64,000 nucleotides of DNA from the IMG/VR virus record IMGVR_UViG_3300036715_003254, positions 1 to 64,000 of that record. One strand, written 5' to 3'. The DNA is from a virus. The translations under genes were made by a program, and so were the position numbers. Shown piece after piece: positions 13,217-24,753 of this stretch (positions are counted from its first letter, which is position 1; each line of letters opens with the position of its first letter). The notes beneath the pieces were generated by a model. The model worked only from the letters and a program-made list of their open reading frames with translations, did not search any database and was not told where the DNA came from.

Positions 13217-13510
13217 TCAACCTTCTCCACCACCATAACCACCAGATCCGTTACCGTCTCCGTAACCATATCCAGCGCCATAACCATCTCCATTGCCATA
13301 ACCGTCTCCGATACCGTAACCAACACCATCGCCATCATTAAATATAGAACCTTGACCGTTTGCAGAACCGCAACCTAGTCCACAGCCGTATCCAGATCCG
13401 TTACCATCTCCAGATCCGTTACCATCTCCAAATCCAAACTGTGAACCAAATCCATCACCAGTACCATTACCGAATCCGGAACTTTTATTAATGTGTCTAT
13501 CTAACCACAT
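13217..13510 (-). CDS. Gly-rich (GxGxG) low-complexity peptide
   Basis: Leader MWLDRHI followed by alternating Gly with D/N/S/Y/F/C. Confidence 0.7.
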   Translation of the reverse strand: MWLDRHINKSSGFGNGTGDGFGSQFGFGDGNGSGDGNGSGYGCGLGCGSANGQGSIFNDGDGVGYGIGDGYGNGDGYGAGYGYGDGNGSGGYGGGEG

Positions 13511-13874
13511 AACTTTTTTGACTTTTTATGTTTTCTATCGCAACATCAGTACAAGGAATTATCTCTATTGGTTGAAGCCATACTTTTTCTACAGCTTCGC
13601 ATACTTTACTACTATTATCTAGACCGGCAATAGATACTTCACTTAGACTAATACCTTTATTAGCTGTTTTCCAGTAATAAAGTCTTCTAGCTTCTCCTAG
13701 AATAATTTCATTACCTTCTTTTTGTAGTACCTTGCCAAACCATACTCCAGCAGAGTAAGTTCTTATGATAGAATATGTTCCTACCATTTCATTACAGCCT
13801 TTAATTGTCATATTCTCAAACAAGCACTTAAGTTCAGTTATTTGTTCTAGAGTTAAATCTTTTATATTAATCAT
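13497..13874 (-). CDS. DUF6948-like (Sm-like) protein
   Basis: IIRTYSAGVWFG...EARRLYYW...SLSEVS...EIIPCT, recognised as a phage family usually found next to Gly-rich ORFs. Confidence 0.75.
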   Translation of the reverse strand: MINIKDLTLEQITELKCLFENMTIKGCNEMVGTYSIIRTYSAGVWFGKVLQKEGNEIILGEARRLYYWKTANKGISLSEVSIAGLDNSSKVCEAVEKVWLQPIEIIPCTDVAIENIKSQKSYVVR

Positions 13875-13877
13875 TTC

Positions 13878-14207
13878 TTATCCTTTATTTAAAATTTCAT
13901 CTTGGTCTGAATCATCTTCCCAGTCTCCATTACCACAGCCAAAACCACTACCACAACCATAGTTACGACCATAACCAGAGCCGCCGCCACAGCCATAGTC
14001 GTTACCAGAACCAGAGCCACTACCAGATCCATCACCGTCTCCATCTCCATAACTAGTGCCTTCGCCCGAACCATAACCAAATCCATATCCATCACCATAT
14101 CCATCTCCCATTCCAGAACCACTACCTGAACCTGCACCATAACCGCTACCAGATCCGTCGCCGAATCCAAAACCGAAGTCTATACCTATATTTTCATCAA
14201 GTAGCAT
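13878..14207 (-). CDS. Gly-rich (GxGxG) low-complexity peptide
   Basis: Leader MLLDENI followed by GFG/GSG/GDG/GYG repeats and an acidic tail; AAGGA RBS. Confidence 0.7.
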   Translation of the reverse strand: MLLDENIGIDFGFGFGDGSGSGYGAGSGSGSGMGDGYGDGYGFGYGSGEGTSYGDGDGDGSGSGSGSGNDYGCGGGSGYGRNYGCGSGFGCGNGDWEDDSDQDEILNKG

Positions 14208-14225: not shown

Positions 14226-14636
14226 TTAATTGCCATCGCCTCTTCTTATTAAATCTCTTTCTTTTATTGTTTCTCTCTTTTCGTATTGTTTTTTACCTCT
14301 ACAAAATCCAACTTTTAGCCTAATAACTGTTTTTTCGTCTTGATATAACTCGAGAGGTATAATAGTAGTTCCCTTTTCAGAAAGAAATTTCATCATTTTC
14401 TCTCTTTCTTTCTTAGTACAGAGAACTGTCTTTAACCTTGTAGGATCGTCAACCTTTCCTATATGAAATTTCGTATAGACACCTTTAGAGTCAATCATAC
14501 AATATTCACCTTTTAAGTTCGCTCGGTGTTCTCTGATGGCCTTTACCTCTTGTCCAAAAAGTATCAAGGAACACTCAAGCTCCTTTTCGATTGTATAATC
14601 GAATTTCGCTTTTGTGTTCTTAGCGAATGATATCAT
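14226..14636 (-). CDS. smpB: SsrA-binding protein SmpB (divergent)
   Basis: NxKAKFDY, LxGQEVKAIR, DPTR, KGTTIIPLELY, RGKKQYEKRETIKERD. Confidence 0.9.
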   Translation of the reverse strand: MISFAKNTKAKFDYTIEKELECSLILFGQEVKAIREHRANLKGEYCMIDSKGVYTKFHIGKVDDPTRLKTVLCTKKEREKMMKFLSEKGTTIIPLELYQDEKTVIRLKVGFCRGKKQYEKRETIKERDLIRRGDGN

Positions 14637-15034
14637 ATACCTAACACCTGTTTAGATAGTTCTGATAGACTTTTAGGATTATACAGACCATCAAAATTTT
14701 GTTTAAAATGAGCGTTTATTTCTCCTAGCGATTTTGGAACAGCAGGAAGAGATTTTTCAGAAACTAGCTTTTTAATTCCATTTACTACTTCATCGTCATT
14801 CATTTGTTTTGGAAGATAAGATTCATAAAGCGCCCTTTCCGAGTCTTTCAAATATTCGTTCTTCAACAAGTTTCTAATTACTTGAACACATTCACCGTCA
14901 GTACTCTCCCTGTTACCTTTATTCTTTCCTGGAGCCATCACTTCTCCAAGAAGGAACGATAGATCTTCTTTTGTTGGTAAGTTGTTTTTTCTAGCTATAT
15001 ACAAGTCTCCATATATTTTTGCTTGAATACCCAT
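14633..15034 (-). CDS. YqeY/GatB-domain protein
   Basis: ...LSFLLGEV...TDGECVQVI...ExALYESYLPKQMNDDEV, the YqeY pattern. Confidence 0.75.
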   Translation of the reverse strand: MGIQAKIYGDLYIARKNNLPTKEDLSFLLGEVMAPGKNKGNRESTDGECVQVIRNLLKNEYLKDSERALYESYLPKQMNDDEVVNGIKKLVSEKSLPAVPKSLGEINAHFKQNFDGLYNPKSLSELSKQVLGI

Positions 15035-15035
15035 A

Positions 15036-15233
15036 TTAAAATCCTTCCTCTACTTCTTTAATTTTAATATTTTGTATTTTTATTATTTTGTCCGGCTTTA
15101 TCGTCTCAAAAAGGTCAGTATTATTCCATTCCGCCAACGAATTGTTGATTTTGTTCACTACGCCTTGCTCTGTTTCTTCATCTACATAAAAGGTTTTTGT
15201 TACTAGACAAGTCATTACTACTCTTTTTCTCAT
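15036..15233 (-). CDS. hypothetical protein
   Basis: 65-aa ORF coupled to the upstream gene. Confidence 0.55.
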   Translation of the reverse strand: MRKRVVMTCLVTKTFYVDEETEQGVVNKINNSLAEWNNTDLFETIKPDKIIKIQNIKIKEVEEGF

Positions 15234-15517
15234 TAAAATCCTTTACAATAAGTTTCAGTTTTTATTTCACAGTTTCTACCATTAAATGGTACTATTATTT
15301 CTACACAGCCAAGTTCTAATAGTTTTTCAGCCAGAATTTTATTTTTTCTACCCGCAGCTCTATATTGAGCACCGTCATCAATATAATTATAGTAATAATC
15401 GATTTGGTTAGCAAGTTCAATAGCTTTAGCTATATTTTCTTCTGAAACGCCTTCTTCGAAAATAATTTTAGAAGTTTGGAAAGTTTTGATATCGTTTTCG
15501 ATAGTTTTCATTTTCAA
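15233..15517 (-). CDS. hypothetical protein
   Basis: ORF right after the promoter at 15540. Confidence 0.6.
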   Translation of the reverse strand: MKMKTIENDIKTFQTSKIIFEEGVSEENIAKAIELANQIDYYYNYIDDGAQYRAAGRKNKILAEKLLELGCVEIIVPFNGRNCEIKTETYCKGF

Positions 15518-15539
15518 GCCTTTTTACTTAATTTGAGAA

Positions 15540-15572
15540 ATTATAACTAAAAATTTCTTAAACTAATCTTAA
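15540..15572 (-). promoter_or_regulatory. host sigma70-type promoter driving the yqeY-smpB-DUF6948 cluster
   Basis: TTAAG...TTTAAG-N-TTTAGT-TATAAT. Confidence 0.7.
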
Positions 15573-15610
15573 ATTTCAGCAAAATTAAAAATTAAGGTTA
15601 ATTTAAGAAA

Positions 15611-15898
15611 TGGTGGACGATACGGCATCGAAGCCGTGTTATCCTGATATCTTCGTTAAGAAATAGTTAAAACAAAATCGCACTTGAAACGATTTTGAGT
15701 TCAAATAGGAGTTTTACAATGTTTTTAGAGAAAAGTGAAAAGAAAGGAAAAGAAAAAATTCAACTTCGTAGCAAAAGGAGTTGTTTCTTGTTAAGCTGCC
15801 AACTCCGCTGCAGGTTTAAAGTTTGTATTGTTTGCACTTATTTGTTTTCAAGTGTATTTCTTACCTACACAATAACAGGATCTTACCCTTAACCGCCC
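15611..15898 (-). ncRNA. ssrA: tmRNA (one-piece, 288 nt); tag ANNTNFKPAAELAA* at 15835-15791
   Basis: 5' GGGCGGU pairs with AUCGUCC-A-CCA, giving the G3:U alanine determinant; T-arm ACGGC-UUCGAU-GCCGU; UAAGU before the GCA resume codon; tag ends LAA-stop; SmpB nearby. Confidence 0.92.
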
Positions 15899-16056: not shown

Positions 16057-16066
16057 TATTCGAATG

Positions 16067-16108
16067 ACTTTCTTCGATGGCTATTCTCGAATAGCCATCG
16101 AAGAAAGT
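16067..16108. repeat. perfect 20-bp inverted repeat
   Basis: ACTTTCTTCGATGGCTATTC-TC-GAATAGCCATCGAAGAAAGT. Confidence 0.9.
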
Positions 16109-16126
16109 TATTAAGTGCTTCATTAA

Positions 16127-16300
16127 ACAATCAACGGGTAGTTACTCCCGTGTATCCATCTAGCCTCTTCCTATCATTGAAAGAGGTTACTGATAACTAA
16201 ATGGACTTTTTATTAAGCACACAGTCAGCGGCGCTATTTGACGCCGCATATCCGTCTAGCCTCTTTCGACAAAAGAGGTTACTGGCAACTAGATGGACTT
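16127..16300 (-). ncRNA. two tandem copies of a ~80-nt structured RNA motif
   Basis: Each copy reads AAGUCCAUYUAG-UURYCAGUAA-CCUCUUU-loop-AAGAGG-CUAGAYGGAUA-hairpin-UGAYUGU. Confidence 0.65.
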
Positions 16301-16347
16301 ATTTCTAAAGCCTAGCACAAAGGTGTATTATTCGGCTTTAGATCGTT

Positions 16348-16551
16348 TTATTTTGTAGCGTTTGCTTCAGCTTTTTTAGCTTCAGCTGCTTTTTTTGCTT
16401 CAGCTTTTTTAGCTTTTCTTTCTTCAGCTTTTTTAGCTTTTTTTGATTCGACTTTTTCAGTTTTGTTTTCATCAGCTTTTTTAGCTTCAGCTGCAAAACC
16501 TACAGAAGCAAGACCAGCTATAACAAGAAGGCTTACAAGAACTTTTTTCAT
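16348..16551 (-). CDS. small exported Lys/Ala-rich protein (Asr/acid-shock-like composition)
   Basis: Signal peptide MKKVLVSLLVIAGLASVGFA followed by AEAKK repeats; promoter -10 at 16603-16608. Confidence 0.75.
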   Translation of the reverse strand: MKKVLVSLLVIAGLASVGFAAEAKKADENKTEKVESKKAKKAEERKAKKAEAKKAAEAKKAEANATK

Positions 16552-16677: not shown

Positions 16678-18033
16678 TCAAAAACTTTGACTTGTGAACG
16701 CTTCAAATAATTCATTGTCTTTCATTAGCGTGCTTTCGGCTGGAGAAGTTTCTTCTATTGTCCCAGCGGCGTCGAAGAATTGCATTCGTTTAAAGTTTAC
16801 GCCAATCAATATTTTAGATAGGTCGCCTGTATTCCTATTTTTTCTAATTGATAGAATTATCTGTCCATTCTTTCTCATTTCATCGTTAGATATCATAAGA
16901 GTAAGAGTGTCAGCTGTCATAACAAAACCGAGAGAATCTGAAACGGTGTCCTCGGTTGCATCTATATTGCCGTAAGAACTTCTATTCAACTGAACGGCTG
17001 TCACAACTGGTAAATTTTGTTTCTTAGCAAATCCGTGACACTCTTCGGCAACAGATTTCATAAGGCTATAAGTGTTACCGAATGTTCCTAAACTTCCTCT
17101 TGAAGACTTCATCAAGCCTATATAGTCTATAATAACTAAATCAGGTACAAAGTCCTTTTTGTTCTTAAGGTCAGTTATAAGACCATTAAGAGTCACAATA
17201 TCCATAGATCCAGCAGGATACTCTTTAATTACAAGTTTTCCTAGTTGTGGTCTAACTTCTTCAAATTTCGATTTCAAGACTGTTTTGTCTATTTTCGATA
17301 ACTCAAAAAGATCTATATTAAGAATATTAGCATCTATTCTTTTCGATATTTCTAGTTCTGACATTTCTAGTGTAATATACAGAACATTCTTTTTCTTTAA
17401 TAAGTTAGAAGCTGCTGTATGGACCAAAAGAGCAGATTTACCTCCGTGTGATGGTGAAGCAAAAATGTTTAAAGTCTTTGGTCGGAAGCCGCCTAGTTTC
17501 TTATCGAACTCTCCAATACCGGAAGTATATCCGAAATTCTTTTTATTATAGTACTCGATCCTTTCAGATATTTCAGAATTATAATCGTGTCCTATATCAG
17601 AATCAAAGTGTATCTTAAGGGCTTCTTCTATCATAACAGGTATTTGAGTAAGCTCACCCTGTTTTTGCATTATTTTAGCCGAAGAAAGAATAGCGTCTTG
17701 TAGTTCTTTTAGCTTGACAAACTTTTCAGTTTCTTCAACCATATACTGCAAATTATGTATAGGAGTTGAGTCAACGAATATTTCTTTGAAATGACTCAGA
17801 ATGCCTTTTTGAAAATCTCTAGACTCAGAGTATTTTGGATCATTTTTTATAAACAGACCTATTTCTTTTGGTCTAGGGTATTCTTCTGTCCTTTCAAAAT
17901 AAGACTTTATAGCCGAAAAAATTTCAGCGTTTTCGACTTTAGAAAAATGTGTTCGCTTTAAATGAGTGAATACCTTACTGAAATATTCCGGGGAATAAAG
18001 TAAGGAGTGTAGAATTTGTTCTTCCATGTACAT
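16678..18033 (-). CDS. gp41: replicative DnaB-like helicase (T4 gp41-like)
   Basis: Walker A SPSHGGKS, YITLEMSE, IIDYIGLM, TAVQLNRS, KNR. Confidence 0.93.
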   Translation of the reverse strand: MYMEEQILHSLLYSPEYFSKVFTHLKRTHFSKVENAEIFSAIKSYFERTEEYPRPKEIGLFIKNDPKYSESRDFQKGILSHFKEIFVDSTPIHNLQYMVEETEKFVKLKELQDAILSSAKIMQKQGELTQIPVMIEEALKIHFDSDIGHDYNSEISERIEYYNKKNFGYTSGIGEFDKKLGGFRPKTLNIFASPSHGGKSALLVHTAASNLLKKKNVLYITLEMSELEISKRIDANILNIDLFELSKIDKTVLKSKFEEVRPQLGKLVIKEYPAGSMDIVTLNGLITDLKNKKDFVPDLVIIDYIGLMKSSRGSLGTFGNTYSLMKSVAEECHGFAKKQNLPVVTAVQLNRSSYGNIDATEDTVSDSLGFVMTADTLTLMISNDEMRKNGQIILSIRKNRNTGDLSKILIGVNFKRMQFFDAAGTIEETSPAESTLMKDNELFEAFTSQSF

Positions 18034-20442: not shown

Positions 20443-21903
20443 TCACGAGAAAAGTTCTTTCATTTTTTCTTTAGCCTCGTCCCAACTTCCAGTCATAGTA
20501 CCAAAAGAATATTCTGAGACAGTACTTTCAAAGAAATTAGTGTAAGTAGTCAGACTCAACTGATTTTCCATCCAAGGAAGAGGATTTTCTTTGATACCGT
20601 AGTTCGGTTTGAGTCCGAATTGTTTTAATCTTTGATCAGCAATATATCTTACATAAAGTTTCATTTCATCTTTAGTAAGATTATTCAAGTCTCCTAGTTT
20701 GAATACATAATCAATATAATCTTCTTCTTTAGCTACAATCTGTCTGGCAGCTTCGTAAATATCTCTTTTAAAATCATCATTCCAGATTTGTCTATTCTCT
20801 TTTATTATAGTTTTGAATAACCAAGCGTTGCCGTCGATGTGACAGTTTCCAGTAACAGAAACTTTGCCATTACTTCTAATAACAAAAGCTTTTCCTGGAA
20901 CAGTTGGACAATAGAAATTTTTTTTATCTGTATTTTCAAGCTTTGTTTTTTCTATTTTACTACTACCGCCTTTTATAAATTCATCACCTTCCACAAATTC
21001 ATATTTTTCTGCTATTTCTTCTTGTGCTTTTCCATCTCTTTTAAATACCATTCTATGACCAGGAGTAACTATTTGTTCGACATCATCTGACTCAAATTTA
21101 TAATAGTAATCTGGACAAGATTTAGTAAAGTGTGTTGGTTCTACAAAAGAATATTCTTCTGTTTCCATATCGAATTGGAGTATTTTTTCTCCTGGCTGAA
21201 GATCTTCTATCTTTTTCCAAGAACCATCTTCTAATTGAACTTCCGTACCTTCTATTATACAATTTTCATCAAGGATACTCCACGACAAAACCTTGTTCAT
21301 ACCAGGAAATTTACCATCTCTAGAGAAAGAAGCTAGTATAGCAAACTGAGCAAATAAAGATATACCTTCTACTAAACCAGAATAAACAGCTATCATTCTA
21401 GCAACATCTTTTCTGAATTCTATATCAGCTTTTTCTATACCATATTCAGAAACATAGTAATGGAATTGTCTAACTCTTGCTTTATGTATATAATCATATT
21501 TTAGAGAAAGACTAGGAATATACTCGTATTCTTTATAGAACTCTTCTGGAAAGCCTAGAGTATCAAGAAGCAAACTATAAGCGTCTTGATGTAGAGATTC
21601 TCTGTTTCCGAAGCTTCTCAACATCATTTTAACTTCATTGGGTTTAAATGCTCTAATAAGAATATCATATCCCATACCTACTTCTGTGTCATTTTGAACA
21701 AAACCTTGAAATATACTTGTTATTATGTGCTTTTCTTCTATAGAAATAGTAGTCCAGTCTTTCATATCGCCTGAAAGGTCTATCTCTTCGGTAGTCCAGT
21801 GAAGGGCTACCTCGTGAGTTTTATATCTATCATAAGCGCTTGGATAATGAAATGGTTTATATGATTTTGAATCAGTATGAAATAAATTATATTTTTTTGA
21901 CAT
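20443..21903 (-). CDS. nrdB: ribonucleotide reductase class Ia beta subunit, containing a mini-intein
   Basis: W-x-x-EEI, ESLHQDAY, EGISLF, DEN-[intein]-CH, NFFE. Confidence 0.93.
   Translation of the reverse strand: MSKKYNLFHTDSKSYKPFHYPSAYDRYKTHEVALHWTTEEIDLSGDMKDWTTISIEEKHIITSIFQGFVQNDTEVGMGYDILIRAFKPNEVKMMLRSFGNRESLHQDAYSLLLDTLGFPEEFYKEYEYIPSLSLKYDYIHKARVRQFHYYVSEYGIEKADIEFRKDVARMIAVYSGLVEGISLFAQFAILASFSRDGKFPGMNKVLSWSILDENCIIEGTEVQLEDGSWKKIEDLQPGEKILQFDMETEEYSFVEPTHFTKSCPDYYYKFESDDVEQIVTPGHRMVFKRDGKAQEEIAEKYEFVEGDEFIKGGSSKIEKTKLENTDKKNFYCPTVPGKAFVIRSNGKVSVTGNCHIDGNAWLFKTIIKENRQIWNDDFKRDIYEAARQIVAKEEDYIDYVFKLGDLNNLTKDEMKLYVRYIADQRLKQFGLKPNYGIKENPLPWMENQLSLTTYTNFFESTVSEYSFGTMTGSWDEAKEKMKELFS
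20845..21261 (-). mobile_element. cis mini-intein (139 aa) in NrdB
   Basis: Starts CIIEGTEV, has block B VTPGH, ends SVTGN followed by Cys+1; no endonuclease domain. Confidence 0.9.
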
Positions 21904-21918
21904 TTTACACCATCCTTT

Positions 21919-22995
21919 TTATTGACAAGACAAACAAGTTTCATATTTGTCCATTTCTTGAATTATTTCTCTTTCGTAATTTGAGCTAGCTTTAGTAGCA
22001 GATTGACTTCTACAGTAGTAAAGACCTTTTAATCCAGCTTTCCAAGCTTGTAAATGTACATAAGCAAGATAACTTCTATCAACATCGTGATTAAAGAATA
22101 GATTTACGGATTGACCTTGGTCAATTTTTTCTTGTCTTACTTTAGCGTGAGAAATAATCCATCTTTGGTCTATTTCGTAAGCTGTTTTGAATACAAGTTT
22201 AGCGTCGTCACTCATCCACTCAAGACCTTGAACAGAACCTCTGTCTTTGATTATTCTTTTCCACTGTTTTTCAATCCACTTATCATCTTCGCCATTCTCT
22301 TCAGCATATTTCTTGATATACTTTTCAAGATTGACATTTCTTATTTCGTGTTTTCCTGTTTTATTTTCGTGAATATAAGCGTTAGCTATAATAGGATCTA
22401 TTCCAGGAGACACATTGTCACAAAGAATAGAAATACTTCCAGTAGGAGCAATAGCCATCTTACAGACGAATCTATCAGTTCCATCTCCATATTCGATAGA
22501 CATAGGACAAGCGCCTTTTTCTTTAGCTATTTCTTTTGACGCTCTATCAGTAGCATCTTTCAAGAAAGTACAAACCTTTCTTTGGAAACCTTCAGCAAGA
22601 GCTGACTCGAAAGGTATCATTTTAGATTGGAGATATGTGTGAAGACCCATTTGACCTAGACCAACAGATCTTTCATATAGAGCGGATTTAAGAGAGTTTT
22701 GGAAACCTCTCGGTTCACCGAATTTTCCAGATTTAGCTTTTCTTTCAAAATCGTCAATTACATTATCAAGAAGTCTCATAATATCTTCTATAAATTGGTA
22801 GTTGTCTTTCCACTCATCGTATTTTGCTAGGTTGACTGAAGCCAAACAACATACAGCAGTGTAATCTTCTGCTACTCTCAACATTATTTCATTGCAGTTT
22901 GAAACTAGTATTTCATTAGCGAAAAAATTGTGGTTATCCTCCACAGTTATATCATAAACAGGAATTTCTTCCTCTAAAAATTCTATTTTGAGCAT
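21919..22995 (-). CDS. nrdA: NrdA C-terminal half, preceded by split-intein IntC (33 aa, 22897-22995)
   Basis: MLKIEF...VYDITVEDNHNFFANEILVSN/CNEI, then CCLAS, GLG, IAPTGS, DQGQS, KGLYY, CLSCQ. Confidence 0.93.
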   Translation of the reverse strand: MLKIEFLEEEIPVYDITVEDNHNFFANEILVSNCNEIMLRVAEDYTAVCCLASVNLAKYDEWKDNYQFIEDIMRLLDNVIDDFERKAKSGKFGEPRGFQNSLKSALYERSVGLGQMGLHTYLQSKMIPFESALAEGFQRKVCTFLKDATDRASKEIAKEKGACPMSIEYGDGTDRFVCKMAIAPTGSISILCDNVSPGIDPIIANAYIHENKTGKHEIRNVNLEKYIKKYAEENGEDDKWIEKQWKRIIKDRGSVQGLEWMSDDAKLVFKTAYEIDQRWIISHAKVRQEKIDQGQSVNLFFNHDVDRSYLAYVHLQAWKAGLKGLYYCRSQSATKASSNYEREIIQEMDKYETCLSCQ

Positions 22996-23010: not shown

Positions 23011-24078
23011 TTAAGATATTTTAAGAACATCAGTTTCATTCAAATCTTTGGCCATAACATAACCTCTGTTTTCTGTCCAAATTTTATGGTCAGGAGTACA
23101 AACGATTTGTTTGCCAGATTCAGTATCTGTTATTCTCATTACTTTAGCTTTAGGCGAAGTCATAGCAAAATCAGTAACTTCTTTGAATGAAATTTCTTTT
23201 GTTTCAGTATTCATAGACTTTACTTTATCGCCTATTTTTATATCTTTTAGTTTTTTATAGCCTTCTTCTGTTTCTAATATAGAATCGCCAGATAAGCATA
23301 ACTGTGAAGTTGTTATTTTCCATCCAGCTTTCACATACAATTCATTCAAATTCTTATTAGCGTTTTCCGAAAAGAATAGATAAGGTTCGCCGTGTTGATG
23401 TCTCTTAGTAAGAATTTTTGTAAATATGTCAAAAGCATCTAGAGTTTTTACTACACTTCCGTCTTTTCTAGAGTATAGGTTATATGACTCGCCGTTTATG
23501 ACAGCATTTAAAAACTCATCAGTAAGTTTTACTGCGTGATGTAGTTTAGGCATCCTTCTTTCTATAGAAGCACCTTTTGTAGTTCTCATTTCTATAAATT
23601 CTTCTATTTCAGGATGATGTACATCTAGATAAATTGCTTGAGAGGCTCTTCTCAAACCTCCTTGAGAAATACCTTGAGCAATAGACTCGCTTATTTTTAG
23701 GAAAGGCATTATACCTGATGTTTTACCGTTCTTAGTTTTAGCGCCTACCTCTCTTACTTCTGAGAAGTCATTTCCTATACCACCTCCAGCAGCACCAAGA
23801 ACCATAGCCTCATAATATTTGTTAAAGATATCATTAAGAGAATCTGAAGTTTGCTGTACGAAACAAGAAATAGGTAAACCTCTTTCATTTCCTAGATTCG
23901 CTGTTATTGGTGTTGATGTTCTAAACCAATTTCGCTCAAAATAGCTATAAAGTCTTTTTTCGTGTTCGGGATTGTCGGCTCCAGCGCGACAAACTCTTTT
24001 GTAAACGTCTTCGGGTTTTTCTCCTGCTGCAGGATTCACATACGACTCTTGAAGCATAATTCTTTCAAATTCGTTCAT
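23011..24078 (-). CDS. nrdA: NrdA N-terminal half, ending in split-intein IntN (95 aa, 23014-23298)
   Basis: STP, PISCF, GGGIG, QGGLRRA, GEPYLFF, then SQL/CLSGDS...VCTPDH...DLNETD. Confidence 0.93.
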   Translation of the reverse strand: MNEFERIMLQESYVNPAAGEKPEDVYKRVCRAGADNPEHEKRLYSYFERNWFRTSTPITANLGNERGLPISCFVQQTSDSLNDIFNKYYEAMVLGAAGGGIGNDFSEVREVGAKTKNGKTSGIMPFLKISESIAQGISQGGLRRASQAIYLDVHHPEIEEFIEMRTTKGASIERRMPKLHHAVKLTDEFLNAVINGESYNLYSRKDGSVVKTLDAFDIFTKILTKRHQHGEPYLFFSENANKNLNELYVKAGWKITTSQLCLSGDSILETEEGYKKLKDIKIGDKVKSMNTETKEISFKEVTDFAMTSPKAKVMRITDTESGKQIVCTPDHKIWTENRGYVMAKDLNETDVLKIS

Positions 24079-24165: not shown

Positions 24166-24753
24166 TCAGTTCGTCGGTTTCTCTTTAATGTGATCAATAG
24201 CTCCAAATTCTAAAGCTTCTTTTGGAGACATCCAACAGTCTCTTTCTAATTTGTCATAAATTACTTCTTTTTTTTGTCCTGTATTTTCACTTAGAATTTC
24301 ATACAGTCTTTCTTTAAGGAACATAACTTCTTTGTAGTGAATTCCTATATCAGTTACCTGTCCTTGTACTCCCGATAAAGGTTGATGGAAGAGTATACGA
24401 GAATTAGGTAAAGTGTATCTTTGACCTTTAGTACCGCAAGAAAGAATGAAAGCTCCCATTGAAGCTGCTTGACCAATACAAACAGTTCTAACAGGAGAAG
24501 AAATAGTTCTCATAATATCAACTAGAGAAAAGCCGTCTGTAATTACTCCTCCTGGAGAGTTTATAAGCATAGTTATTTGCTCGTCCGAAACAGAATCAAG
24601 ATAAAGCAGCTGAGATATCACTGAAGTAACAAGTTCTTCTTCTATTTCTCCTACAAGAAATACTGTTCTATTTTTATTAAATAGTCGGCTATAACAGTCA
24701 TACTGTTTTTCGCCTCTAGTATTTGATTCAATTGCTATTGGATTTACTATCAT
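24166..24753 (-). CDS. clpP: ClpP protease proteolytic subunit
   Basis: INSPGG; catalytic triad intact: AASMG (Ser), HQP (His), ERD (Asp). Confidence 0.95.
   Translation of the reverse strand: MIVNPIAIESNTRGEKQYDCYSRLFNKNRTVFLVGEIEEELVTSVISQLLYLDSVSDEQITMLINSPGGVITDGFSLVDIMRTISSPVRTVCIGQAASMGAFILSCGTKGQRYTLPNSRILFHQPLSGVQGQVTDIGIHYKEVMFLKERLYEILSENTGQKKEVIYDKLERDCWMSPKEALEFGAIDHIKEKPTN

Follow-up and report, generated by a model that had tools for sequence, protein, structure and literature searches.

The window analysed here comprises the 64,000 nucleotides at positions 1 to 64,000 of the IMG/VR virus record IMGVR_UViG_3300036715_003254, a record of 138,481 bp with a CheckV completeness of 94%. 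Its minus strand carries, in an ORF-free gap, a compact one-piece tmRNA (ssrA) gene of 288 nucleotides (15611-15898), supported by ARAGORN -ps, a sub-threshold Rfam RF00023 match and the MFE fold. A divergent smpB gene (14226-14636, 136 amino acids) lies 974 nucleotides away on the same strand, next to a gene for a YqeY/GatB-like domain protein (14633-15034, 133 amino acids), and two small ORFs of the ORF list (15036-15233, 65 amino acids, and 15233-15517, 94 amino acids) sit between the tmRNA gene and the yqeY-smpB pair, again on the same strand. A clpP gene (24166-24753, 195 amino acids) is located on the minus strand 8.3 kb away.

Detection and structure of the tmRNA

At default settings ARAGORN detected no tmRNA, either in the window or across the genome, and Rfam gave no tmRNA match at its gathering threshold. 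When ARAGORN was run with the -ps option, which corresponds to 95% of the threshold, the 138,481-bp genome yielded a single call, c[15611,15898], with a tag of exactly ANNTNFKPAAELAA. A relaxed Rfam search aligned RF00023 to 15611-15888 with 13.5 bits (E-value of 0.0058 in 1.4 kb and of 0.0012 in 301 nucleotides), the resume region and the T-arm being placed with high posterior; the gathering cut-off is 47 bits, and both this value and the ARAGORN threshold are detection thresholds and not a biological property. The sequence-only reading had proposed these two tools as a check and had regarded the lack of a covariance-model match as counting against the gene. Its expectation is borne out in that a call and a covariance-model match were both obtained, and is not in that the former disappears at default stringency and the latter stays sub-threshold. 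ARAGORN -ps made no call in 100 dinucleotide-shuffled genomes (13.8 Mb), and the five calls made in shuffles with -ps90 were all of the other (starred) type and had poor tags. The tag pattern described below matched the window once and none of 100 shuffles. In view of the absence of calls in 13.8 Mb of shuffles and of a tag pattern typical of Campylobacterota, the tmRNA-like gene is not a product of chance.

The tmRNA, as read from the sequence and the ARAGORN bracket string, has an acceptor stem of 7 bp (GGGCGGU paired with AUCGUCC as G1-C, G2-C, G3.U, C4-G, G5-C, G6.U and U7-A), the 5' strand of which (15892-15898, minus strand, as are all features of the RNA) provides G3 of the G3:U70 alanine identity pair. 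The 3' strand (15615-15621) is followed by the discriminator A (A73, 15614) and by an encoded CCA (15611-15613) that ends at 15611. The T-arm (15622-15637) consists of a 5-bp stem (ACGGC/GCCGU) and a loop of 6 nucleotides, UUCGAU, with C:G closure. The G3:U acceptor, encoded CCA, T-arm and tag that the sequence-only reading had assigned to a tmRNA at 15898-15611 were thus all found there. The T-loop keeps UUCGA, but its 6 nucleotides contrast with 7 in all 122 comparators (112 Campylobacterota-type and 10 viral ARAGORN calls), and the D-loop of 10 nucleotides, in which GG and GA are kept and the U-rich centre is replaced by UAA, contrasts with at least 12 nucleotides in 111 of the 112 host-type calls. 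Other phage tmRNAs also show the AAC-AC junction ahead of the T-stem and the GG..GAY frame in the D-loop. Since loop-loop contacts at the elbow are described as required for SmpB binding, these non-canonical T- and D-loops could impair the tRNA-like domain.

In the MFE fold, the acceptor stem and the T-arm reappear together with a long, bulged P2 helix of about 22 bp (5' strand 15855-15881, 3' strand 15641-15665). P2 encloses a span (15641-15881) in which the tag region is accompanied by a linker rich in pyrimidines and by a single hairpin of 9 bp (15673-15697). In both the MFE and the centroid folds the stop codon of the tag lies in the loop of a 7-bp candidate helix H5 (15777-15806), formed by GGAGUUG (15800-15806) and CAACUCC (15777-15783). 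Overall, the RNA folds modestly better than its shuffles (z of -2.09, with 6 of 200 as good). None of the pseudoknots PK1-PK4 is recognisable, as the RF00023 alignment deletes, mispairs or poorly aligns their stems, and only about 19 nucleotides separate P2 from the resume codon. An H-type PK1 drawn by hand between RNA positions 29 and 63 left no third loop and was rejected. PK2-4 have been described as dispensable and PK1 as replaceable by a hairpin (Giudice 2014).

A terminator-like element (15548-15611) borders the gene on its 3' side. Its hairpin (15553-15611) starts at the last base of the CCA, has inverted repeat arms of 24 nucleotides that are 88% complementary, and is followed by UUUUU (15548-15552). 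It folds with -17.1 kcal/mol (z of -4.97), and none of 200 shuffles was as stable. A sigma-70 scan showed no convincing promoter directly upstream of the RNA, the sigma-70 model being uninformative for such a host.

The tag, the likely host and persistence of the gene

According to the sequence, ARAGORN and the Rfam alignment, the tag reading frame (15791-15835) has 14 codons, ANNTNFKPAAELAA, and a stop; it opens with the resume codon GCA (15833-15835), closes with TAA (15791-15793) and ends in LAA. The context upstream of GCA, AACAAAUAAGU, agrees with the Rfam consensus at high posterior. A genome search with the tag pattern, A-N-N-x-x-[F/Y]-x-P-A-x-x-x-A-A-stop, returned at least 120 loci, and 79 of the 80 named ones among the matches listed were from Campylobacterota. 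Default ARAGORN placed a tmRNA at 111 of the 120 loci listed, for example with the tags ANNTNYRPAHALAA and ANNASFRPAAALAA, and these calls provided the host tags for comparison. Judged from these sequence matches, the pattern belongs to Campylobacterota tmRNAs. Two residues set the phage tag apart, as Glu11 replaces an Ala present in all 28 distinct host tags and Lys7 occurs in none of the 28. Because the tag copies the Campylobacterota design, host proteases should be able to read it. The similarity of the phage RNA to Campylobacterota tmRNAs is confined to the resume and tag region, which argues against a recent capture of the gene from a host.

The helicase of the phage is closest to those of Campylobacter phages of 124-134 kb. 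The record probably represents an uncultured phage of about 138 kb that infects Campylobacterota, in habitats such as sediments, mats and vents. A search of the phage genome revealed no RF-1/ArfB, RNase R or RtcB, and a match to RNA_ligase reached only 22 bits, below its cut-off. Near-identical copies of the stretch were present in four DNA sequencing runs, one of which is possibly the source of this DNA; no RNA run was listed among the runs that match the stretch. A vent run contained a variant of about 92% identity with pieces of both the tmRNA gene and smpB, in contigs of low depth that differed at 2 of 134 positions over the 3' third of the RNA and at 23 of 299 positions over smpB. Among the indels listed for a diverged contig, all were outside the tag frame. 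These contig comparisons covered the parts of the stretch spanned by contigs of four DNA runs, the best-matching run, possibly the source, being left aside. The sole phage relative detected, using DnaB as a query, is a fragment of 31% completeness that lacks both the tmRNA gene and smpB.

These data bear on whether the RNA may be a decaying relic of a captured host ssrA fragment, or a false call, i.e., a chance tRNA-like fold beside a genuine smpB. Such an origin would account for the sub-threshold scores with both detectors and for the missing module in the only detectable relative, and host ssrA fragments do occur in viral contigs: a search of these with the tag pattern retrieved only one other tmRNA, of host type and cut at the contig end, and no other viral contig with a phage-borne tmRNA of this tag design. 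However, the shuffled controls, the intact acceptor stem, tag frame and CCA, the retention of the gene in the vent variant and the terminator-like hairpin that bounds it all speak for a genuine gene, and the restricted similarity to Campylobacterota tmRNAs speaks against a recent capture. We therefore regard a relic or a false call as highly improbable.

SmpB, ClpP and the neighbouring genes

The smpB product scored 109.7 bits with Pfam PF01668 (cut-off of 27) and matched profile positions 2-135 of 143, in agreement with the earlier description of a recognisable smpB about 1 kb from the tmRNA. It remained below both NCBIfam cut-offs (108 bits with an equivalog cut-off of 130, and 107.7 with 119.1). 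Residues 5-132 align to solved SmpBs, tail included, and all 18 columns that are invariant across 14 SmpBs are kept, with an 8-residue deletion in an internal loop. The C-terminal tail is GKKQYEKRETIKERDLIRRGDGN, in which GKK..EKR.. can be read with E replacing the D of DKR; it aligns as far as residue 139 of the 144-residue T. thermophilus protein and four further residues lie beyond. An AF2 model had a pLDDT of 84 and a pTM of 0.72, with a tail helix (residues 120-133) of low pLDDT (54-66), and the best 21 Foldseek matches of the model in the PDB were all SmpBs, with target-normalised TM-scores up to 0.88. The model thus predicts the OB-fold beta-barrel body of an SmpB, and the basic tail is present in the sequence. 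In a phylogenetic tree, the protein and a single relative of 66% identity were placed on a stem of 1.7 substitutions per site, apart from 73 other SmpBs. This separate long branch, together with an identity of only 36-38% to the SmpBs of four Campylobacterota genomes, rules out a recent host origin.

The stop codon of the YqeY-like gene overlaps the smpB start (ATGA). The sequence-only reading was right about this adjacency, whereas the family assignment is less firm: Pfam PF09424 gave 25.5 bits and narrowly missed its cut-off of 27, PHROG 1460 'tRNA amidotransferase' gave 54 bits (E-value of 3e-14), and NCBIfam gave no match. A general partnership of YqeY with phage SmpB was discarded, as homologues were found near smpB in only 3 of 50 viral loci, which represent a single lineage since their matches are identical. 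Neither small ORF had a Pfam or NCBIfam match or a relative near other viral smpB genes.

The clpP gene was identified with Pfam PF00574 (217 bits), and the Ser/His/Asp triad motifs GQAASMG, HQPL and RD align to a solved ClpP, as expected for the intact clpP noted before. The NCBIfam ClpP models gave 222-234 bits, just below their cut-offs, compared to 64.5 bits for the head-maturation model, and the neighbouring genes are nrdA, nrdB and a dCMP deaminase gene; on the basis of these scores and neighbours, a role as prohead protease was ruled out. The protein is of the cellular type and is 50-54% identical to ClpP in all five Campylobacterota genomes compared. No match to AAA_2 (PF07724), and no ClpX/ClpA-type unfoldase, was found in the 138-kb genome, so that a host unfoldase would be needed. 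The link of ClpP to the tmRNA-SmpB pair is circumstantial.

Comparison with known systems and proposed function

The RNA and protein share with bacterial one-piece tmRNA and SmpB (RF00023 and PF01668; structures 7ac7, 4v8q and 2czj) G3:U70, A73 and CCA, a P2 helix, an A-rich resume context, GCA, an LAA-ending tag and a stop in the H5 loop, as well as, in the predicted protein, the OB-fold of the body and a basic tail at the C-terminus. They differ in being phage-encoded, in the lack of recognisable PK1-PK4, in the 6-nucleotide T-loop with C:G closure, the 10-nucleotide D-loop and the sub-threshold scores, and in length: at 288 nucleotides, the RNA is at least 64 nucleotides shorter than the 112 Campylobacterota-type tmRNAs (352-535 nucleotides). 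The phage SmpB differs from bacterial ones by its scores below the equivalog cut-offs, its 8-residue deletion and its very long branch.

The combination of a phage tmRNA with an SmpB is not new, although its form is unusual here. The sequence-only reading had considered a cognate phage SmpB to be described much less often than phage tmRNAs, but such a pair is no rarity, as indicated by the tmRNAs and SmpB mentioned for huge phages (Al-Shayeb et al. 2020, PMC7162821), by SmpB homologues in 67 GenBank phage records, including 15 Lak phage records and a 735-kb phage, and by a co-occurrence survey in which 15 of 49 SmpB-bearing IMG/VR records also had an Rfam-grade tmRNA. The huge and Lak phages resemble the present one in carrying copies of both dedicated components of trans-translation, but many of the SmpB-bearing records are far larger (Lak, 635-735 kb and 230-520 kb) than the approximately 138 kb found here. 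The 10 ARAGORN calls at viral tmRNA loci measure 221-504 nucleotides, with at least 352 in the eight regular full-length ones, and all have 7-nucleotide T-loops. At 50 loci around other viral smpB genes, relaxing ARAGORN added no tmRNA to the 5 called by default.

Relatives were also searched for with several other queries. The single SmpB retrieved no relative from viral contigs, and a profile of the two closest SmpBs retrieved only SmpBs of 34-40% identity from JGI metagenome contigs. The T-arm/CCA pattern matched at least 116 loci, and among the matches listed none resembled the phage RNA beyond a match of about 30 nucleotides to its 3' T-arm/acceptor end in three. Together, the SmpB, T-arm/CCA, DnaB, SmpB-profile and tag-pattern searches provided no relative of the RNA for an analysis of covariation.

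Among other phages, tmRNA is counted in 402 of 18,146 phage genomes in the study of T4-like marine myophages (Melnitz and pelagimyophages) by Buchholz et al. (2022, PMC9004378). These resemble the present phage in that their ssrA is of the type of a (past) host lineage, but they are described as mostly two-piece, in contrast to the one-piece form with its own smpB found here; where that paper deals with smpB, the gene figures only as the bacterial partner in trans-translation and not as a phage gene. The roles proposed there, the maintenance of hijacked translation or the tagging of proteins for recycling, are the same as those considered here. Two-piece tmRNAs are described as having strongly reduced pseudoknots with tagging kept (Giudice 2014). 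The two-piece, plastid and endosymbiont forms thus share the reduction of pseudoknots, whereas the present RNA is unpermuted and viral and is reduced at the PK1 position as well.

We consider it likely that the phage tmRNA and SmpB make up a streamlined, functional pair for trans-translation. Transcription of the 288-nucleotide RNA would be independent and would stop at the hairpin and U-run that directly follow the CCA, and host tRNA-processing enzymes would trim the RNA. Phage SmpB would bind it at the tRNA-like elbow, host AlaRS would alanylate it via G3:U70 and A73, and EF-Tu would deliver the charged RNA to stalled ribosomes with an empty A site, where the SmpB tail would probe the empty mRNA channel. 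Translation would then resume on GCA, append (A)ANNTNFKPAAELAA and stop at the UAA in the H5 loop, releasing the ribosome. The C-terminal LAA would route the product to ClpXP-type proteolysis, to which phage ClpP subunits may contribute with a borrowed host unfoldase. The benefit would be the recycling of ribosomes and amino acids while host and phage mRNAs are cut during infection. A counter-defence role and redirected proteolysis, both put forward in the sequence-only reading, are ideas at this stage.

The unusual loops and the lack of recognisable pseudoknots would also fit a decoy or inhibitor. In that case, the RNA, with or without phage SmpB, would titrate host SmpB, AlaRS or EF-Tu or occupy stalled ribosomes, and tagging would be incomplete and host trans-translation damped. 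The RNA of mycobacteriophage DS6A, likewise a reduced phage-borne tmRNA derivative, is reported to act as a tmRNA inhibitor upon expression in E. coli (Hudson, Lau and Williams 2014, PMC4131195, and a 2025 database paper). However, it is described as having little beyond the tRNA-like domain, whereas the present RNA retains the tag frame in full and is accompanied by a phage SmpB of full length, including the tail that is reportedly needed for tagging. A near-consensus resume context, an open frame of 14 codons with the host design and a terminal LAA, and an H5-like stop loop would be superfluous in a decoy, and we consider this function very unlikely.

The same divergent features could alternatively reflect an orthogonal pair, in which the elbow of the RNA has changed jointly with the long-branch SmpB, so that each works mainly with the other and is insulated from host SmpB and tmRNA, and in which Lys7 and Glu11 change the reading by proteases or adaptors; we regard this as unlikely. 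Besides the long stem, the low identity to host SmpBs and the T- and D-loops unlike all or nearly all comparators, it would be in line with the description of E. coli SmpB Trp122 entering the elbow pocket and of G19 being needed for binding (Guyomar 2021), as the phage residue aligned to Trp122 is Val104. In E. coli, ClpX is described as reading the C-terminal LAA, and ClpA as reading ALA and N-terminal residues. The phage tag could, for example, be read by ClpX via LAA and yet evade recognition of the ClpA type, which might favour particles with phage ClpP. However, fast phage evolution may simply explain the divergence of both partners, the Trp122 column varies among SmpBs, the AAC-AC junction and GG..GAY frame are common to other phage tmRNAs, and the protease rules stem from E. 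coli and not from Campylobacterota. It is similarly improbable that the three parts form one private, co-diverged channel, in which a pseudoknot-free minimal tmRNA is read only by phage SmpB, the Lys7/Glu11 tag retunes the choice of protease and phage ClpP joins host unfoldases.

Phage-borne ribosome rescue is documented and, to our knowledge, essentially unstudied at the bench. The present locus shows that the tmRNA-SmpB pair is not confined to huge phages, as the genome measures about 138 kb, and from its tag design Campylobacterota can be predicted as hosts of an uncultured phage of sulfidic habitats. Default ARAGORN and Rfam settings overlook such genes, and surveys of phage tmRNAs would therefore undercount them. 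The RNA appears as a naturally minimised one-piece tmRNA, with a TLD, P2, a short linker, the tag, H5 and little else, and may serve as a natural test of the pseudoknot dispensability suggested by mutagenesis. Should the private channel prove true, it would represent the smallest one-piece tmRNA design from nature with proven function, as well as a natural orthogonal SmpB-tmRNA pair. Mutual specificity of the RNA and its SmpB, if established, would make the two a ready-made pair for orthogonal tagging.

Sequence and fold of the tmRNA candidate

The 288-nt tmRNA candidate (15611-15898, minus strand) had been described by the sequence-only reading as carrying a G3:U acceptor, an encoded CCA, a T-arm and a tag, and all of these elements were read directly in the sequence. 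The acceptor stem consists of 7 bp, 5' GGGCGGU pairing with AUCGUCC and including G3.U70, and is followed on the 3' side by a discriminator A and the CCA. The T-stem of 5 bp (ACGGC/GCCGU) surrounds the loop UUCGAU, and the frame GCA...TAA encodes the tag ANNTNFKPAAELAA. The check by ARAGORN and Rfam proposed for this stretch was positive in part, both detections lying below default thresholds. Default ARAGORN reported neither a tRNA nor a tmRNA anywhere in the genome, the window included, and Rfam gave no match at gathering thresholds. At 95% of the threshold, ARAGORN made a single genome-wide call, c[15611,15898], a standard (unpermuted) tmRNA with the same tag, and a relaxed Rfam scan matched the tmRNA family RF00023 at 13.5 bits versus a cut-off of 47. 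The posterior of this alignment is high at the resume context (AACAAAUAAGU-GCAAAC versus the consensus AAAAAAUAAuU-GCaAAC), the T-arm and the 3' acceptor, and low over the pseudoknot region; none of PK1-PK4 was recognisable in it, and about 19 nt separate P2 from the resume codon.

In the minimum free energy fold, positions 18-44 pair with 234-258 to form a P2 of about 22 bp; the acceptor stem and the T-arm are also recovered, as is a 7-bp helix (GGAGUUG/CAACUCC) with the stop codon in its loop. The fold energy of the whole RNA is modestly below that of shuffled sequences (z -2.09, 6 of 200 shuffles as good). A hairpin with 24-nt arms starts at the last base of the CCA and is followed by UUUUU; it reaches -17.1 kcal/mol (z -4.97, with none of 200 shuffles as stable) and is plausibly a terminator bounding the tmRNA gene. 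When the genome was shuffled 100 times with its dinucleotides preserved (13.8 Mb), ARAGORN made no call at 95%; at 90% it made five, each of the other (starred) type and with a poor tag. A relic or a false call, to which the sub-threshold scores and these controls both pertain, is considered the least probable of the readings weighed.

Compared with Campylobacterota-type tmRNAs, which among the matches listed measure 352-535 nt (median 362), the phage RNA is short. Only in the resume and tag region does blastn detect similarity to them (the best alignments being 26 nt at 92% and 74 nt at 72%), and the candidate is therefore not a recent capture. According to loop lengths read from ARAGORN structure strings, its T-loop has 6 nt, whereas 7 nt were found in all 112 host-type calls among the matches listed and in 10 of 10 viral-locus calls, and the closing pair of its T-stem is C:G instead of the G:C of the comparators. 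The D-loop, of 10 nt, is also shorter than in 111 of the 112 listed host-type calls (at least 12 nt) and in the viral calls (11-14 nt); it retains GG and GA, with UAA in place of the U-rich centre of the others. The AAC-AC junction 5' of the T-stem is not unique to this RNA, as it is common to two other phage tmRNAs (L177 and L179). Giudice et al. (2014) describe PK2-4 as not needed for tagging, PK1 as replaceable by a small stable hairpin, two-piece tmRNAs as functional with far fewer pseudoknots, and D-loop/T-loop contacts as required for SmpB binding. A decoy RNA, on which the lack of recognisable pseudoknots, the altered loops and the intact tag frame all bear, is judged very unlikely.

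Tag kinship and probable host

The tag was generalised to the pattern A-N-N-x-x-[F/Y]-x-P-A-x-x-x-A-A-stop, which matched once in the window versus never in 100 shuffles. Searched over one genome per prokaryote species, it was found at 120 loci at least, and among the matches listed with names 79 of 80 belong to Campylobacterota (Campylobacter, Helicobacter, Arcobacter, Aliarcobacter, Nitratiruptor, Sulfurovum, Hydrogenimonas, Sulfurospirillum, Thiovulum and others), the sole other named match among those listed being 'Candidatus Cibiobacter'. Default ARAGORN identified 112 tmRNAs in 111 of the 120 listed loci, with tags such as ANNTNYRPAHALAA, ANNASFRPAAALAA and ANNVKFAPAYAKAA. The phage tag is therefore of Campylobacterota design. 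It differs by 4-6 substitutions from every 14-residue host tag among the matches listed (109 tags). Two of its residues, at positions left free in the pattern, are unique: Lys7, which is A, R or T in the host tags listed, and Glu11, which is Ala in 28 of 28 distinct host tags listed.

The DnaB helicase is nearest to that of Campylobacter phages of 124-134 kb (36.5-36.8% identity), which are only slightly closer than a Prochlorococcus phage (34.8%). Four sediment or microbial-mat DNA runs contain 86-99% of sampled words, and one of them may be the source of the record; two hydrothermal-vent DNA runs contain 9%. Tag, helicase and habitat together make a Campylobacterota host likely, and we hold this assignment with good confidence. 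A phage tmRNA may also reflect a former host, as stated by Buchholz et al. (2022, PMC9004378).

In one hydrothermal-vent run (X5), the contig over parts of smpB shows 23 differences in 299 nt and that over the 3' third of the RNA shows 2 in 134 nt, the flanks differing at 22 positions with 5 gaps in 340 nt and at 8 positions in 46 nt. As these are single contigs at a depth of 2-3, they give only a weak hint that the RNA is more conserved than its surroundings. In a second DNA metagenome run (X4), a diverged contig spans the middle of the RNA; the indels listed are all outside the 45-nt tag frame: some precede the resume codon, and others follow the stop codon or are in the pyrimidine linker.

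SmpB and its occurrence in phages

The smpB gene (14226-14636, minus strand) had been noted as recognisable beside a YqeY-domain gene, and this was borne out: its 136-residue product scores 109.7 bits with Pfam SmpB, and its start overlaps the stop of the YqeY-like gene (14633-15034, minus strand) in ATGA. The NCBIfam SmpB equivalogs give 108 bits, below their cut-offs of 119 and 130. Residues 5-132 align to solved SmpBs, and the tail is present, since residue 132 corresponds to residue 139 of the 144-residue T. thermophilus SmpB. The shortness of the protein is due to an 8-residue internal-loop deletion common to its single close relative (P0002, 66% identical); the loop in question probably corresponds to the 'central loop', disordered in SmpB crystals. 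The AlphaFold model has a pLDDT of 84 (body 86-93, tail 54-66), and SmpB structures fill the first 21 places among its Foldseek matches in the PDB. The tree built from 75 SmpBs joins the phage protein to P0002 (support 100/100), the two sharing a stem of 1.7 substitutions per site; the 37 viral, 4 Campylobacterota and 32 other sequences are placed away from them. The Campylobacterota SmpBs, matched in 4 of 5 genomes, share 36-38% identity with the phage protein, no more than SmpBs of other phyla do.

In E. coli, as described by Guyomar et al. (2021), Trp122 of SmpB enters the elbow pocket and G19 is needed for binding. Val104 of the phage SmpB aligns at the Trp122 column, which is variable among SmpBs. 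The tmRNA and SmpB are thus both divergent at their interface, which is compatible with co-adaptation and is not proof of it. A private, co-diverged SmpB-tmRNA pair with a retuned tag, for which the altered T- and D-loops, the long SmpB stem, Lys7 and Glu11 are the relevant observations, along with the variability of the Trp122 column, is considered unlikely.

According to Buchholz et al., 402 of 18,146 phage genomes have a tmRNA gene, T4-like marine myophages among them, and Al-Shayeb et al. (2020, PMC7162821) describe huge phages carrying tmRNAs and SmpB. By tblastn, SmpB is present in 67 phage records of GenBank, 15 of them from Lak phages, and the 735-kb phage is also among them; some small records with a terminal smpB look like host flanks. 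A profile search located SmpB at 50 IMG/VR loci; in 15 of the 49 SmpB-bearing records RF00023 matches at full length and above its cut-off, with scores of 38-42 bits in 3 others, and at 5 of the 50 loci ARAGORN placed a tmRNA within 5 kb of smpB. The rarity attributed to a phage SmpB accompanied by a tmRNA was thus overstated. In the open-access literature we found no paper on a Campylobacterota-phage tmRNA or on a one-piece phage tmRNA so reduced.

In six smpB-bearing viral records of 135-236 kb (G001, G005, G014, G017, G018 and G034), Rfam detected no full-length tmRNA and relaxed ARAGORN none in the vicinity of smpB; these genomes may carry SmpB without a tmRNA, or their tmRNA may be located in a part that is missing or have diverged beyond detection. 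Three smpB loci (L132, L135 and L136, in records of 135-191 kb) have a YqeY-like homologue about 2.4 kb downstream of smpB (28% identity over 121 columns, the matches being identical to one another), and their records (G014, G017 and G018) gave no RF00023 match at E <= 0.01. A Campylobacter-type tmRNA with the tag ANNVNFAPAYAKAA at positions 1-350 of an IMG/VR locus of 37,913 bp (L330) was rejected as not phage-owned: it is cut at the 5' end of the contig, the pattern usually left by a prophage at an ssrA integration site.

Gene neighbourhood, ClpP and reading of the system

The IMG/VR virus record is linear, of 138,481 bp, with a CheckV completeness of 94% and a GC content of 28-35%, the window being its first 64 kb. 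ARAGORN found no tRNA gene in the entire genome, and the tmRNA is the sole tRNA-like gene of this T4-like-sized genome. It lies among tightly packed minus-strand genes, in the order dnaB (16678-18033, Pfam DnaB_C 77 bits), an ORF-poor stretch, the RNA, two small minus-strand ORFs in the ORF list, the YqeY-like gene and smpB. Immediately 3' of smpB, a 109-residue ORF (13878-14207) consists nearly entirely of Gly-X repeats (GSGSGYGAGSG..., GDGYGDGYGFGYG...) and is followed by a DUF6948 gene (13497-13874, Pfam 89.7 bits).

A near-perfect palindrome (16063-16112; 24-nt arms, 96% complementary, 2-nt spacer) precedes the tmRNA 5' end by about 165 nt and caused spurious miRNA-family matches in the relaxed Rfam scan. 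It could serve as a terminator acting in both directions, as a processing stem or as a site for protein binding. The ORF-poor stretch also holds a tandem motif pair (16148-16216 and 16244-16308, spaced by about 92-96 nt; repeat families D3, 84% identity, and D5, 86% identity). A phage tmRNA with an attached riboswitch has been described by Buchholz et al., so that a regulatory leader in this place is conceivable by analogy. Within a small minus-strand ORF (16348-16551), a 47-nt unit rich in CAGCTTTTTTAGCTT occurs in four diverged copies (16343-16494), and metagenome strain variants differ there by whole repeat units.

The clpP gene (24166-24753, minus strand) is intact, as had been claimed: the 195-residue protein scores 217 bits with Pfam and 222-234 bits with NCBIfam ClpP models versus 64.5 bits with the head-maturation model, and retains the Ser/His/Asp motifs. 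It is 50-54% identical to ClpP of 5 of 5 Campylobacterota genomes, and at most 49.5% among the best 12 of 804 GenBank phage records. Its link to tagging was overstated in the earlier interpretation. Its neighbours are nrdA (two ORFs), nrdB and a dCMP deaminase, with no head genes, and the 138,481-bp genome contains no ClpX/ClpA-type AAA_2 domain, RF-1/ArfB domain, RNase R or RtcB. Since the AAA_2 domain is missing, the phage, as judged from its genes, would provide tmRNA, SmpB and ClpP but no unfoldase.

The two adjacent nrdA ORFs lie at 23011-24078 and 21919-22995; the C-terminal part of the first matches helicase-type PHROGs and not reductase, and an internal stretch of nrdB (20443-21903, 486 residues) matches a PhoH-like family. 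This suggests inserted elements (intein or homing element) or a split gene.

The observation made from the sequence is real, and its interpretation was right in kind, with the overstatement confined to novelty and the ClpP link. A functional, streamlined phage trans-translation pair is the most likely reading, and one that we regard as probable. Such a pair would use the AlaRS, EF-Tu, ribosomes and unfoldases of the host.
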